From Escherichia coli (lineage in GTDB: Bacteria > Pseudomonadota > Gammaproteobacteria > Enterobacterales > Enterobacteriaceae), in assembly GCF_009931435.1 (NCBI RefSeq), contig NZ_CP043414.1: a stretch of DNA of 64,000 bases; one strand, 5' to 3'. A program made the translations under genes and the position numbers. This document shows positions 21,820-27,127 of the stretch, piece by piece; position 1 is the stretch's first letter; each line of letters opens with the position of its first letter. Under the pieces are notes generated by a model. That model was not told the origin of the DNA and did not search any database. It worked only from the letters and a program-made list of their open reading frames with translations.

Positions 21820-23058
21820 TTAATCAGGCTTTGGACAACGTTGTTCCTTCCAGCTGGATACCGCCGCAATCCGCCGTCGGGTCAGCTCCTCGCGAATCTC
21901 CACACCTTTAAATCCCGCTTCAACGACGGCTTTTGTCGGCACTGACTGTGCCACTTCCCAGGCTTCGCGCAACCAGCGGCCTTGCGGGTAGTCCGCTGAT
22001 TCAAAACCGGTTCTGCCGCGCACATCAGCCTCGCTGGTCAGCGCCAGTTGCTCGACACGCTGCGGTTTACGCCAGGCGTCGATGGAATCAAATAGTTTGA
22101 CGATGGTTTTTGGGTTCAGCATTGGGAAGGTGTGGATGAGATCGTGAAACTCAGCCACCAGTCTGGCTAAATCGCGAATTTCATTTGGCACGCGCAGACG
22201 CTGGCATAGTTGTTCCACTAACTTCACACCCGCCGGGCCATGACCATGATGACGCGGCCAAAGTTCTGGCGGCGTCAGTCCTTTACCGAGATCGTGGCAT
22301 AGCGTTGCGAAACGGACATCGACCTGCGGACTTAGCATCGCCGCCATTGAGAGCGTCATTAAGGTGTGAATACCGGTGTCGATTTCCGGATGCCACTTGG
22401 CAGGGGCCGGAACGCCAAACAGGGCGTCAATTTCCGGGAATAAAACGCGCAGTGCGCCGCAATCGCGCAGTACCTGGAAGAACACCTGGGGATTGCGGGT
22501 AGTGAGGGCGCTTTCCGTCTCTTTCCACACCCGTTCAGGCGTCAGGTGTTCCAGTTCACCCGCGTGGGTCATCTCGCGCATCAGCGCCAGAGTTTCATCG
22601 GCAATACGAAAACCGAGGTGGGCATAACGCGCAGCAAAACGCGCCACGCGCAGTACGCGTAACGGATCTTCGCCAAAAGCGGGGGAAACATGGCGCAACA
22701 GACGATTTTGCAGATCGCCCAGACCGTTGTACGGGTCGATAATCTCGCCGTTATCGTCCTGGGCCAGCGCATTAATGGTCAGATCGCGCCGCTTAAGATC
22801 ATCTTCCAGCGTGACATCCGGTGCGGCATAGCAGGTAAAACCGGTGTAACCGGAACCGGATTTCCGTTCGGTACGTGCCAGCGCATACTCTTCATGCGTT
22901 TGCGGATGCAGAAAAACAGGAAAATCGCGGCCTACCTGCTGGTAGCCCGCGTCGAGCATCTCCTGTGGCGTACTACCGACTACCACCCAATCTCTGTCTT
23001 TGACCGGTAGCCCTAACAATGCATCCCGAACAGCACCACCGACCAGATAAATCTTCAC
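21820..23058 (-). CDS. cca: tRNA CCA-adding nucleotidyltransferase / phosphohydrolase
   Basis: ORF track 412 aa [28 protein letters not shown]. Confidence 0.95.
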
Positions 23059-23121
23059 GCCATCATCCCTTCGTCAAATACACAATTCCTAATAATAAGA
23101 CAGTGCAACGAAGAAGGCGAT

Positions 23122-23742
23122 TTAGTTCATCCAGCGATCTTTACGTTTGCGCGTTGGGATCAGGTGCGGCAGTACCAGACCGAGCAGCAAGCCAAGCCCC
23201 AGCACGCCGCCACCATACATAAACCACTGCATGATGATGGTGCGCTGTTTGTCATCCAGCTGCACGCTGGCGGCATCGACCTTTTTCTGCGCGACAATCA
23301 GCTCGTTTTTCAGTTTCTGATTTTCTTCTTTTAACCCGTTGATCACGCTGTCGCTCTGCGCCACTTTTTGCTGCATTTCTGCGGTGCGCTGATTCCAGGT
23401 GTTATCGATATTGGTGAGCTTATCGGTCAGGGTTTTGACCTGATTTTCCAGATCTGGCACACGGGAGCGCAGGCTTGGCTCTGTGCTAAGTTGTTTCAAC
23501 GGGATCCAGGCGGTACGGCCAGAGCTGTCTTTCACCTGGGCATAATTGGTGTTGGCGTCAGTTTGTAATAAGGTCACTTCCTCGCCGGCGTTAACCGTGC
23601 CCACGAGGCGATAATGGTCTCCCGGACCGCTACGGACCCAGGTATTCAGTTCGTCAGAAACATAGCGCGTTTCTTCAGCGTGTGAGACGGCAGTGGCGCT
23701 AAGCGCGAGTAAAGTTAATCCGATCAGGCGTAATTTTGGCAT
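23122..23742 (-). CDS. ygiM: SH3-domain membrane-anchored protein
   Basis: ORF track 206 aa; signal peptide, coiled-coil, C-terminal TM. Confidence 0.8.
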   Translation of the reverse strand: MPKLRLIGLTLLALSATAVSHAEETRYVSDELNTWVRSGPGDHYRLVGTVNAGEEVTLLQTDANTNYAQVKDSSGRTAWIPLKQLSTEPSLRSRVPDLENQVKTLTDKLTNIDNTWNQRTAEMQQKVAQSDSVINGLKEENQKLKNELIVAQKKVDAASVQLDDKQRTIIMQWFMYGGGVLGLGLLLGLVLPHLIPTRKRKDRWMN

Positions 23743-24084
23743 CAGGCTGTCGTTATTGTCATGGAAAGTGGAACGATAGTAGTGGCATCAGTGTCGCTAC
23801 GCAAAGCATTCGACATCAATCGGAATCCTCTGTGTCAGGTCTTGCCACTGCTTCAAACTTTTACGCCCGTCAAATTGCCCGTTGCATGGCAATTTGGCGC
23901 AAAATACTATCTACTGACAAAAAAGATCGCATTAAGTTCGCCGTTCATCGTCACTTATGTGACATAACCGATAAGTAAAGGCCTTGACATCCTCCCCCAC
24001 CTTCGCGCAAAGCGACTCAGGAGGGGGATTCCCTTGTCAGGGTAGCAATACGTTGCCGCATTGCCCGGTTCCTCGCTCGACGGC

Positions 24085-25290
24085 TTACGCCGCCTTACGG
24101 GCGCGTCCTTTACGGACTGACGGCAATATTTGTCCTGCCGCCATGACTTCAAAACCTGCTGTTAATATATTGCGAGCGCCGTTTACATCGGCGTTTGCCG
24201 TATAGCCGCACGCGGTACAGATAAAGCTCGCCTGCGTCCTGCGGTTATTTTTCGATGTATGCCCACAACATGCGCATTTCTGACTGGTGTACGCCGGATT
24301 AATCGCCAGCACATCACCGCCGCGCCATGCCTGCTTATATTCGAGCTGGCGGCGCATTTCTGCCCAGCCCTGATCCAGTATCGCCCGGTTAAGACCTGAT
24401 TTTGCCGCGACGTTGCGCCCCGGCTGGTCTACCGTACCCACTGCTGATTTTGACATGTTCGAAACCTTTAAATCCTCAATGACTATCATCGCGTGGTTTT
24501 TGCTGATCGTCGTCGTGGTTTTATGAAGGTAATCGCGGCGGATGTTTGCGATATGAGAGTGGAAACGGGAAATCTTCGCTTTCTGCTTTTTCCAGTTGGC
24601 GGAGAATTTAACCATCCGGGCCAGACGGCGCTGTAAGCGAGCCAGCTTATCCTGATTTTTTTTAAAGCTGTTTACCGGTTCAAAGACCGTGCCGTCTGAA
24701 AGTGTTGCCAGCTTTGTTATACCTGCATCCAGGCCTATTGCGCTGGTCGATGCGTGAATCGGATCGGTAACAGCTAATTCGACCTGAAAAGACACATACC
24801 AGTGTCCGGCATGCTGGCTGATGGTGCAATTTTTAATGACGCCTTCAATCTTCCGGGACTGACGAAATTTAACCCAGCCCAGTCCTGACGGGAGTTTCAC
24901 ACGGCCATAATCCAGCCCACAATATTTGCTGAAATTGACGAACCGGATAGAGTCGCAGCCTTTGGTTTTCTTTTTGAAAACGGGCTTTTCAGCCGTCAGG
25001 GATTTATCAAAACAGCGATCCCATGCGCTCCGCAGGTCTTTCAGTTTCTGCTGGAGGTTGTCAGTGTAACCCTCAGCAAGAAAGGCCAGCTCAGGGAGTT
25101 TTTTCCAGCCCGTAAGTCGTTTATTCAGGTCGAAAGCTGACAGAATTTTTCCGCCCGCGTCATGAATGCTCAGTGTTTCATTCAGTGCATAGTTCCAGAC
25201 AAAGCGAGCGCAACCGCACAACTGACGCAACCTTTGCGCCTGCTGGTCAGTGGGGTAGAGCCTGTATTTATATGCTTTCTGGATTAACAT
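24085..25290 (-). CDS. tnpB: TnpB (IS605 OrfB family, RuvC-like RNA-guided endonuclease)
   Basis: ORF track 24085..25353; likely start MLIQKAYKYRLYPTDQQ at 25290; RuvC motifs GLDAGI, IEDL, C-x2-C...C-x2-C zinc finger CACCGH...CTACGY, DVNGARNI. Confidence 0.85.
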   Translation of the reverse strand: MLIQKAYKYRLYPTDQQAQRLRQLCGCARFVWNYALNETLSIHDAGGKILSAFDLNKRLTGWKKLPELAFLAEGYTDNLQQKLKDLRSAWDRCFDKSLTAEKPVFKKKTKGCDSIRFVNFSKYCGLDYGRVKLPSGLGWVKFRQSRKIEGVIKNCTISQHAGHWYVSFQVELAVTDPIHASTSAIGLDAGITKLATLSDGTVFEPVNSFKKNQDKLARLQRRLARMVKFSANWKKQKAKISRFHSHIANIRRDYLHKTTTTISKNHAMIVIEDLKVSNMSKSAVGTVDQPGRNVAAKSGLNRAILDQGWAEMRRQLEYKQAWRGGDVLAINPAYTSQKCACCGHTSKNNRRTQASFICTACGYTANADVNGARNILTAGFEVMAAGQILPSVRKGRARKAA

Positions 25291-25356
25291 TTTGCATTCA
25301 GTATGTGGTTGTTTAGAATGTACAATATATCCACATTTTTTTGGGAGGGTCAATAC

Positions 25357-25755
25357 GTGTGCGAAATCAATCGTTCACGCTATTCAGCTTACCTGTTGCA
25401 TGTTCACGTTGTTTTTATGACAAAATACCGCCGTCCAGTTTTTGGTGAATTGCATCATGCAAACATGCGTCAGTATGTAGCGGAGGTATGCGCGGACTTT
25501 GGCGCCGAGTTAAAGGAATGTGACGGCGAGGCAGATCATGTTCACATGCTGATTGAATACCCACCGTTGGTGCAACTCACAAAGCTGGTAAACAGCCTTA
25601 AGTCCGTTACCAGTAGGCGGCTGCGGAATGATTTTATTGATTTGCGCGCCGCGTATTCAAAGCCCGTACTCTGGTCACGCTCTTATTTCATCGGTTCATG
25701 TGGTGGAGCACCGCTGGAAGTTGTGAAAAAGTATATTCAGAATCAGCGTGGCTGA
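25357..25755 (+). CDS. tnpA: IS200-type Y1 (HuH) transposase TnpA
   Basis: ORF track 25303..25755; probable GTG start 25357 after gggaggg SD; HuH motif HVHMLI and catalytic Tyr in SRSYFIGS. Confidence 0.8.
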   Translation: MCEINRSRYSAYLLHVHVVFMTKYRRPVFGELHHANMRQYVAEVCADFGAELKECDGEADHVHMLIEYPPLVQLTKLVNSLKSVTSRRLRNDFIDLRAAYSKPVLWSRSYFIGSCGGAPLEVVKKYIQNQRG

Positions 25756-25825
25756 TAAACTGCGGGCTTAACAGCCCAAATTCCCCTCCCGCCTACGTTG
25801 GGGGGGAGTACCCAGTGGAGGAAGG

Positions 25826-27127
25826 ATGGCTCAGGAAATCGAATTAAAGTTTATTGTTAATCACAGTGCCGTTGAGGCGTTGCGTGACCATCTCAATACG
25901 CTGGGCGGTGAGCACCATGACCCCGTGCAGTTGCTGAATATTTACTACGAAACGCCGGATAACTGGTTGCGTGAACACGATATGGGCTTACGTATTCGTG
26001 GCGAAAACGGCCGCTATGAGATGACCATGAAAGTCGCAGGAAGAGTGACTGGCGGTTTACACCAGCGCCCGGAATATAACGTGGCGTTGAGCGAACCGAC
26101 GCTCGAGCTAGCGCAGTTACCGACGGAAGTCTGGCCGAACGGTGAGTTACCAGCCGATCTCGCGTCCCGCGTGAAGCCACTGTTCAGCACCGATTTTTAT
26201 CGCGAAAAATGGCTGGTGGAACTCGATGGCAGCCGAATTGAAATCGCTCTCGATCAGGGCGAGGTGAAGGCAGGCGAATTTGCTGAGCCTATCTGCGAGC
26301 TGGAACTGGAGCTGCTTAGCGGCGATACGCGCGCGGTACTGAAACTGGCGAACCAACTGGTATCGCAAACCGGATTACGTCAGGGCAGCCTGAGCAAAGC
26401 CGCGCGCGGCTATCATCTGGCGCAGGGCAATCCCGCGCGTGAAATCAAACCGATCACCATTTTGCATGTTGCGGCAAAAGCTGATGTGGAACAGGGGCTG
26501 GAAGCGGCGCTCGAGCTGGCGTTAGCGCAATGGCAGTATCATGAAGAACTGTGGGTACGTGGCAACGATGCGGCGAAAGAGCAGGTGCTGGCAGCCATCG
26601 GTCTGGTCCGTCATACGCTGATGCTGTTCGGCGGTATTGTGCCGCGTAAAGCGAGCACTCACTTACGTGACCTGCTGACCCAATGCGAAGCGACCATCGT
26701 TTCTGCGGTATCTGCCGTGACGGCGGTCTACTCTACCGAAACGGCGATGGCGAAGCTGGCGTTGACCGAATGGCTGGTAAGCAAAGCCTGGCAGCCGTTT
26801 TTAGATGCCAAAGCGCAGGGCAAAATCAGCGATTCTTTCAAACGCTTTGCCGATATCCATCTTTCCCGCCATGCCGCTGAACTGAAAAGCGTTTTCTGCC
26901 AGCCATTAGGCGATCGCTACCGTGACCAATTGCCGCGCCTGAAGCGTGACATTGACTCAATATTGTTGCTGGCGGGTTACTACGATCCTCTCGTCGCGCA
27001 AGCCTGGCTGGAGAACTGGCAGGGACTGCGTCATGCCATTGCGACCGGGCAACGCATTGAAATTGAACATTTCCGTAATGAGGCAAACAATCAGGAACCG
27101 TTCTGGTTGCACAGCGGAAAACGTTAA
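25826..27127 (+). CDS. ygiF: Inorganic triphosphatase (CYTH domain)
   Basis: ORF track 433 aa [11 protein letters not shown]. Confidence 0.9.

Follow-up and report, generated by a model that had tools for sequence, protein, structure and literature searches.

The right end of an ISEc41-like IS200/IS605 element in Escherichia coli and its probable role as source of the TnpB omega-RNA scaffold

Locus, Boundaries and Encoded Proteins

The 64-kb stretch of Escherichia coli DNA considered here (contig NZ_CP043414.1; below, the window, to which positions refer unless stated otherwise) carries, between ygiM and ygiF, an ISEc41-like insertion sequence (IS) of the IS200/IS605 family, and our subject is the right end (RE) of this element, at 23984 to about 24142 on the minus strand. 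The open reading frames (ORFs) of the neighbourhood, namely uppP/bacA, cca, ygiM, the tnpB/tnpA pair, ygiF, and glnE, identify the locus as E. coli chromosome. Read along the minus strand, the element consists of the left end (LE), tnpA on the opposite strand, tnpB, and the RE (Table 1), the two genes being divergent with starts 12 bp apart. On the identical locus of strain R32_14_1F, RefSeq annotates an “RNA-guided endonuclease InsQ/TnpB family protein” at 24085..25290 and an “IS200/IS605-like element ISEc41 family transposase.” The stretch is an IS200/IS605 right end of an ordinary, already known type within an element already annotated in RefSeq, and by itself, as a textbook example, it is of little weight. 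A full-text literature search returned mentions of ISEc41 in resistance surveys only, unrelated primers only for the RE tail GGAGGATGTCAA or GGAGGAUGUCAA, and no report on an endogenous TnpB of strain Nissle near ygiF or on an RNA of an ISEc41-like element.

Table 1. Features of the ISEc41-like element and of the adjoining host DNA (positions in the window).
Feature	Position	Strand	Description and basis
Whole ISEc41-like IS200/IS605 element	23984..25825	-	1,842 bp; ygiM–ygiF intergenic; empty-site alignment and RefSeq annotation
RE tail GGAUGUCAA	23984..23992	-	Ends in the TCAA cleavage site (23984..23987), which closes both element and scaffold; flanks diverge at once beyond it
Predicted omega-RNA scaffold	23984..24142	-	About 159 nt, S-a through RE tip; 5' limit possibly as far as about 24193; fold z-score and covarying helices
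P2, subterminal RE hairpin	23993..24028	-	Preceded by GGAAU (GGAAUCC at 24026..24032)
P1b hairpin CCCU-GACA-AGGG	24031..24042	-	Specific to the closest subgroup
P1 stem-loop GGCAAUGCG-GCAA-CGUAUUGCU	24044..24065	-	9 bp, GNRA tetraloop; corresponds by position to ISDra2 stem 3
AGGAACC motif	24067..24073	-	Conserved; non-coding in the window, coding (..QEP..) in relatives
S-a hairpin GGCGGCA-GGACAAAUAU-UGCCGUC	24119..24142	-	Inside the tnpB coding region
tnpB, RNA-guided endonuclease	24085..25290	-	401 aa; Pfam OrfB_IS605, Cas12f1-like TNB, HTH
tnpA, Y1 (HUH) transposase	25303..25755	+	Pfam PF01797 Y1_Tnp, E 3.2e-39; RefSeq ISEc41 family transposase
Left end (LE)	25756..25825	-	Sequence; homologous left ends in 5 relatives
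Target site and predicted transposon-associated motif (TAM), 5'-CCAT-3'	25826..25829	-	Host DNA, present in the empty site; plus strand ATGG, contains the ygiF start codon
Predicted guide GGCCUUUACUUAUCGG(UUAU)	23964..23983	-	16–20 nt of host flank, ygiM–ygiF intergenic; position next to the RE
Host palindrome TTATGTgACATAA (TTATGT-g-ACATAA)	23955..23967		Outside the element; unchanged in E. coli genomes without the IS

Alignment of an empty site to the window gives the insertion as 23984..25825, without target duplication. The junctions read ..gataagtaaaggcc|ttgacatcc.. and ..ggaggaagg|ATGGCTCAG; on the minus strand, the empty site is GAGCCAT|GGCCTTTACTT and the filled one GAGCCAT|CCTTCC..(IS)..GGAGGATGTCAA|GGCCTTTACTT. 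The insertion is clean, lies between CCAT and GGCC, and has no terminal inverted repeats. More than 130 homologous right ends, from 36 TnpB-homologous loci found in a genome scan and at least 120 metagenome stretches, also terminate in GGAGGATGTCAA with unrelated flanks beyond. Their consensus end is GG(A/G/T)GG(A/G)TGTCAA, directly followed by unrelated sequence; TCAA and the tail are universal among the retrieved right ends, the tail having formed part of both search patterns.

A preliminary description of this region had already placed here an IS right end limited at about 23990, with a hairpin tccccc...ggggga ending at 24027 and an RNA-coding part starting at about 24150 of the minus strand, and had proposed mapping of the boundary against an empty site as a check. 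The mapping bears out the right end and shifts its limit by 6 nt, to 23984. The hairpin is real and is the one named P2 here, its end being at 24028, and the figure of 24150 is approximate, the conserved structure starting at about 24142 and possibly reaching 24193.

Both proteins are recognizable. The Pfam domains of TnpB were assigned on the ORF 24085..25353 of the minus strand, and residues 2–379 of the protein align with TnpB of ISDra2 (8bf8/8exa/8h1j) with E 8e-49. Positions matching D191, E278, and D361 of ISDra2 TnpB are occupied by D, E, and D, so the catalytic triad is intact, and both zinc-finger CxxC motifs are present. The alignment stops at ..NILTAG, and the last ~20 residues are not conserved; the stop codon (24085..24087) lies 101 nt before the RE tip. 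In ISDra2, the omega-RNA, the guide RNA of TnpB, likewise overlaps a dispensable C-terminal tail of tnpB (PMC10097598).

Structure and Covariation of the Right End

The minus strand from 23984 to about 24142, that is, the sense strand of tnpB, forms a structured conserved region that shares its upstream part with the tnpB 3' end and stops at the mapped boundary of the element. The 217 nt from 24200 to 23984 fold with -92.8 kcal/mol (z = -4.7 against dinucleotide shuffles), and none of 200 shuffles was as good.

The first helix, S-a, has the form GCGGCR-GGACA-YGCCGU in relatives; in this homologous helix, two third codon positions, both synonymous, covary, with 16 GC, nine AU, and one CG pair and none broken. 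Upstream of it, at 24146..24162, lies a decayed 21-nt duplicate of S-a, which adds seven codons to TnpB. The placement of S-a given by the MAFFT alignment was rejected, and inspection sets the hairpin behind this duplicate. On plasmid pmk2 of Klebsiella sp. PL-2018, S-a is cleanly duplicated in tandem (about 335-380 of the retrieved locus), and the duplicate in the window is a decayed form of this same duplication.

In the window and its two Klebsiella relatives, GNRA-type hairpins make up a remodelled middle module (24079..24117), and the stop codon of tnpB is situated in a GUAA loop. The stretch from there to the RE tip, 101 nt, is consequently non-coding in the window. In other relatives, the counterpart of this stretch is coding (..GAAGCAGGAACC.., translated as KQEP). 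Since AGGAACC and P1 are non-coding in the window and are nevertheless conserved with a sequence that is coding in those other relatives, the constraint acts on nucleotides and not on protein. Near the tip, tccccc at 23993..23998 and ggggga at 24023..24028 form P2, on the minus strand UCCCCCUCC-(18-nt loop)-GGUGGGGGA with one T.T mismatch; the loop is enlarged to this length in the window and contains an inner mini-hairpin, whereas family-wide the frequent P2 loops are UUUA (36) and UUCA (35).

As a separate observation, on the soil metagenome contig Ga0210409_10000045 (5148-5600 of the retrieved locus, minus strand), tnpB is followed by three tandem copies of a ~140-nt unit that runs from S-a to GGAGGATGTCAA, with 5-7-nt junctions and a degenerate terminal hairpin in the first two copies. 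The limits of the unit (S-a to GTCAA) coincide with those of the predicted scaffold.

All relatives share the order AGGAACC, spacer, stem-loop P1, ..GUA-GGAAUCC, hairpin P2, and GGAGGAUGUCAA. When the segment from AGGAACC to GGAAUCC was folded singly for 135 distinct right ends, it formed a hairpin (median -13.1 kcal/mol, median z = -2.3) despite widely different sequences. Among the 4-nt P1 loops, 60% are GNRA or UNCG, compared with about 5% expected, an enrichment that is a signature of RNA rather than DNA.

A global MAFFT alignment of 126 right ends of 240 nt, analysed with RNAalifold, recovered P2 alone, because it was too gappy (638 columns). The relatives were also compared using a covariance model, R1, seeded by hand with 15 homologous right ends of equal length (78 positions, 18 pairs), which gave 107 hits in 100 sources and, on the whole window, a single hit at 23984..24073 of the minus strand (25.8 bits, E 1.2e-4). 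On the R1 alignment of 106 distinct relatives, which is fitted to the structure of the model and hence favours it, 94.3% of cells are paired, compared with 67.5% in shuffles; both sides changed in 428 cells, compared with 128 ± 12; and the covariation score is 0.544, compared with at most 0.075 for registers slid by 1–3 columns. Double changes affect nine out of nine pairs of P1 and six out of nine pairs of P2.

Congruent results were obtained for the closest subgroup of ten right ends (the window, two Klebsiella plasmid types, Klebsiella sp. PL-2018, two Aeromonas, Xenorhabdus, a Salmonella IncI plasmid, Oceanimonas, and one metagenome contig). All ten fold into the hairpins P1 (GNRA loop), P1b (CCCN-NNNN-NGGG), and P2 (enlarged loop with mini-hairpin). 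With our own structure imposed on a plain MAFFT alignment, 90% of cells pair overall; in P1, eight out of nine pairs are double-changed and 96.5% of cells are paired, in P1b two out of four pairs are double-changed, and the inner mini-hairpin of P2 shows one G-C/A-U swap. The score of 0.402 compares with at most 0.067 for the slid controls.

Target Site, Guide and Function of the Right End

The LE contains a subterminal imperfect hairpin, CTCCCCCCC..GGGAGGGG, at about 25808..25783, and in both the window and the Klebsiella copy it is directly preceded on the 5' side by GGTA, the candidate left guide tetranucleotide. The host tetranucleotide CCAT adjoins the 5' side of the LE in five independent insertions, namely those in the window, a Klebsiella plasmid, Aeromonas caviae, a Rhodocyclaceae metagenome-assembled genome, and Xenorhabdus. 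A sister subfamily with the same RE tail (six retrieved loci from Morganella, Yersinia, Serratia, and others) has TTAT or TTAC at the junction, and its LE hairpin carries AAAA with TTAT and AAAG with TTAC, so that target and left-guide bases co-vary. Such pairing is expected from the TnpA guide and cleavage-site logic of the family. As the TAMs of TnpB proteins mirror the transposon target, CCAT is predicted to be the TAM here. The predicted guide would be the host flank from 23983 to about 23964; this sequence occurs once in the window and is preceded by CCAT in the empty allele.

Taking all this into account, we consider it probable that 23984..~24142 of the minus strand has two functions, serving TnpA as a single-stranded DNA substrate and encoding the omega-RNA scaffold of TnpB. 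The preliminary description had read the region in the same way, as an RE with an omega-RNA gene, and had suggested a search with covariance models; the empty-site boundary, the single R1 hit in the window, situated at the RE, and the helices covarying across 106 relatives support this view, the search being favourable through our own model, with no matching profile in Rfam.

As a DNA element, P2, the terminal TCAA, and the GAAT just on the 5' side of P2 would make up the RE substrate recognized and cut by TnpA. The motifs themselves are read directly from the sequence, and their role is proposed by analogy with IS608, whose RE reportedly ends in TCAA and has GAAT 5' of the RE hairpin. The similarity to IS608/IS605 of Helicobacter pylori, the paradigm of the family, extends to the combination of a Y1 TnpA with TnpB, the lack of inverted repeats and of target duplication, the subterminal imperfect hairpins, an LE abutting a fixed tetranucleotide target, and, as in IS605, divergent tnpA and tnpB. 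Unlike IS608, which has the target TTAC and AAAG at the LE hairpin, the element considered here has CCAT and GGTA; the sister subfamily does use TTAC/TTAT with AAAG/AAAA.

As a template for RNA, the tnpB 3' end and the RE would be transcribed on the tnpB strand into the omega-RNA (also called right-end-element RNA, reRNA), with S-a, the remodelled middle module, AGGAACC, P1 with its GNRA loop, P1b, and P2 as probable parts of the scaffold. TnpB would bind the scaffold, and the 3' extension of the transcript into 16–20 nt of host flank, GGCCUUUACUUAUCGG.., would act as the guide. As the element inserts 3' of CCAT, the vacant ygiM–ygiF site reads CCAT followed by the predicted guide target, and would be a substrate for TnpB with the omega-RNA. 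Vacated or naive sites could then be cut and the element copied back into them by homologous recombination, in line with the homing model. That model concerns IS605-family TnpB endonucleases of Geobacillus stearothermophilus (10.1101/2023.11.20.567912). In it, excised sites are cut again and refilled, since the vacant donor site, adjacent to the TAM, is matched by the guide, and the same is predicted here; unlike the Geobacillus case, E. coli has only one copy of the element, at one site.

The closest characterized system is ISDra2 of Deinococcus radiodurans (Karvelis 2021, PMC8612924; Nakagawa 2023, PMC10097598), with a homologous TnpB (E 8e-49) that has the same D-E-D triad and an RNA encoded, on the sense strand, by the tnpB 3' end and the RE. 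Its scaffold of 116 nt comprises stems 1–4 and a pseudoknot, the distal part of stem 3 being flexible (PMC10097598); the variable-length stem before the terminal hairpin, stem 3a/3b there, is matched by P1 here. Both systems have a terminal hairpin adjoining the guide, and the UUUA tetraloop at -20..-17 in the guide-proximal stem 4 of ISDra2 (PMC10097598) has its equivalent in the UUUA or UUCA found at the corresponding distance in most members of our family. The 3' tail of the ISDra2 scaffold (-6..-2) pairs far upstream and not with the nearby G-A motif, and this pseudoknot between the tail and an upstream segment is conserved in TnpB and Cas12 guide RNAs (PMC10097598); GGAAU 5' of P2 corresponds to the partner that is “predicted but unused” in ISDra2. 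In ISDra2, the guide comes from the flank and the TAM equals the transposon target site, and both are predicted for the present element as well. The differences are the TAM (predicted CCAT here, TTGAT there), the divergent tnpA and tnpB, the enlarged P2 loop (18 nt, with the inner mini-hairpin), and the remodelled middle module at 24079..24117, the present system being known from sequence alone. Sense-overlapping non-coding RNAs (sotRNAs) have also been described at the 3' end of IS1341-type tnpB genes (PMC4615843), in agreement with the position predicted here.

Several points weigh against a role as omega-RNA. A promoter scan of 23850..24700 gave no sigma-70-like promoter on the minus strand, and the transcript, which could derive from a processed tnpB mRNA or an internal promoter, its 5' end, and its processing site are predictions. 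The IS605-orfB motifs of Rfam are non-coding RNAs that overlap the tnpB 3' end on the sense strand; unlike them, the RE family considered here lies outside the curated models, as Rfam 15 had 0 matches on 22500..27000 at E <= 1, a null result that reflects the coverage of the library and is not evidence against an RNA. The pseudoknot defining ISDra2 and Cas12 scaffolds was sought and not located. The lone candidate is a long-range helix between GAUGU (24185..24189) and AUGUC (23986..23990) proposed by RNAalifold on 26 genome right ends, which shows one-sided changes only; with GAUGU on the codon of a catalytic Asp and its partner in the invariant tail, it is not separable from coding constraint by covariation. 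The R1 score of the window copy is low (25.8 bits), because in the closest subgroup P1 directly follows AGGAACC, an extra small hairpin is present, and the middle module differs, and the R1 alignment itself leans toward the structure of the model. The covariation of P2 is explained equally well by a DNA hairpin needed by TnpA. Finally, the element is single-copy at one site in all 146 E. coli carriers, with no sign of recent activity, and a C->G change at 24063 in the Nissle-type allele breaks one P1 pair.

Some of these points would also follow if the region were a DNA-level RE for TnpA only (hairpin and TCAA), with the omega-RNA absent or defunct in a fixed single-copy element. The features required of a TnpA substrate are present (P2, the GAAT on its 5' side, and the terminal TCAA), and the single copy at one site in 146 genomes, the broken P1 pair of the Nissle-type allele, and a promoter scan free of promoter-like sites all fit this explanation. 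According to work on IS608, TnpA is not known to need any part of an RE other than the hairpin and the cleavage site. Although located outside these two, P1, P1b, and S-a covary, including at synonymous sites, and have GNRA/UNCG caps, and TnpB is intact with its full catalytic triad; we therefore regard a purely DNA-level function as unlikely.

[quoted passage not shown] Stable stem-loops do follow directly after the tnpB stop codon, but no terminator was called on the minus strand of 23850..24700, P2 being followed by AGGAUGUCAAGGCC without a U-tract; the invariant tail GGAGGAUGUCAA and the covarying multi-helix architecture go far beyond the needs of a terminator, and homologous TnpB systems use the corresponding region as guide-RNA scaffold (PMC8612924, PMC10097598). 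Hardly credible, finally, is a small-protein gene in the 65-aa ORF 23955..24152 of the minus strand: although the frame is open from a TTG start, this start is internal to tnpB, in a different frame, and the ORF crosses the RE and stops 29 nt past the IS boundary, its last ten codons and stop codon being host sequence; Pfam gave no match, and stops interrupt the frame in six out of seven related elements. The preliminary description had taken this ORF as a reflection of RNA-coding DNA, and rightly so.

Beyond the role in omega-RNA synthesis that we favour for this RE, we offer a broader and tentative proposal, which is possible but doubtful as a whole. The module AGGAACC..P1..GGAAUCC-P2-GGAGGAUGUCAA may define a large omega-RNA family outside Rfam 15 (36 genome loci, at least 120 metagenome stretches), whose E. 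coli branch would have a previously unreported CCAT TAM specified by the GGTA left guide; the ygiF-proximal copy may have been co-opted, and ygiF expression in the Nissle/ATCC 25922 lineage could depend on the element.

Taken separately, the RE family is widespread and missing from Rfam, and the scaffold, the predicted CCAT TAM, and the guide are now defined and directly testable. The well-used strains E. coli Nissle 1917, ATCC 25922, and ABU 83972 carry an apparently intact endogenous TnpB whose predicted guide targets the ygiM–ygiF site of other E. coli, which is relevant to the engineering of carriers or the use of TnpB tools in them.

Distribution, Alleles and Neighbouring Features

Among 5,426 complete E. 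coli genomes, the ygiM–ygiF site is filled in 146 and empty in essentially all others, and in all 146 carriers the element occurs at this site only, with no second site in E. coli. Two further “full-length” E. coli records presumably represent Klebsiella-type plasmid copies of 75% identity, such as H65, and not second sites of ISEc41. The copies differ by 9–12 substitutions. The Nissle-type allele is common; besides the change in P1, the C-run of its LE hairpin is shorter by one base. In Nissle 1917 and in strain 2013C-4282, the annotated TnpB is an intact coding sequence of the same length.

As indirect evidence of transposition, three allelic states exist at the site, the third, besides empty and full, being a 63-bp mini-element found in ten out of 5,426 genomes. 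In E. coli RM14723 (1483-1545 of the retrieved locus), the initial 24 nt of the LE are joined to the final 39 nt of the RE in a hybrid hairpin, with the fusion point in a shared CTCCCCC/ATCCCCC run. The mini-element is either an internal deletion between similar C-runs of the end hairpins or a derivative resembling palindrome-associated or miniature inverted-repeat transposable elements (PATE/MITE-like).

Outside E. coli, plasmid p44-1 of Klebsiella pneumoniae (1-620 of the retrieved locus) carries two related IS200/IS605 elements head-to-tail: another TnpB element, distinct from the ISEc41-like copy, has the tip of its RE at position 75, and the LE of that copy follows ~450 bp downstream.

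On the plus strand, a 73-aa ORF without a Pfam match (23984-24205) starts exactly at the RE tip, its TTG being the reverse complement of the terminal CAA; it is likely another artefact of the structured RE.

The perfect palindrome TTATGT-g-ACATAA, noted just outside the element in the preliminary description, exists and does lie outside it, at 23955..23967 instead of 23957..23969. A second palindrome, GTCACttatGTGAC (GTCAC-ttat-GTGAC), overlaps it at 23950..23963. We rejected the first as a feature of the IS or a protein-binding site: it is host DNA in empty sites, and the window has 19 perfect palindromes with 6-nt arms and a 1-nt spacer, compared with about 15.6 expected, which is the chance level. 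Its start at guide position +17, such that a guide of 17–20 nt would run into it, is thus incidental.

Compared with Nissle 1917, the window differs by 0.5% in the IS, by ~4% in the first 300 nt of ygiF (25826-26125), and by ~1% on the ygiM side (23684-23983). The same insertion thus occurs in divergent ygiF backgrounds, which could reflect recombination in ygiF or transfer of the filled allele from one lineage to another.

The insertion cuts ygiF off from its native 5' region, as the IS lies exactly between the ribosome-binding region of ygiF and its ATG (25826). The LE tip GGAGGAAGG, directly 5' of this ATG, places a Shine-Dalgarno-like GGAGG 4 nt before it (25810-25830, plus strand), and tnpA (25303..25755) is co-oriented with ygiF. 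To judge from this arrangement, ygiF may be translated from the Shine-Dalgarno sequence supplied by the IS and transcribed by read-through from tnpA.

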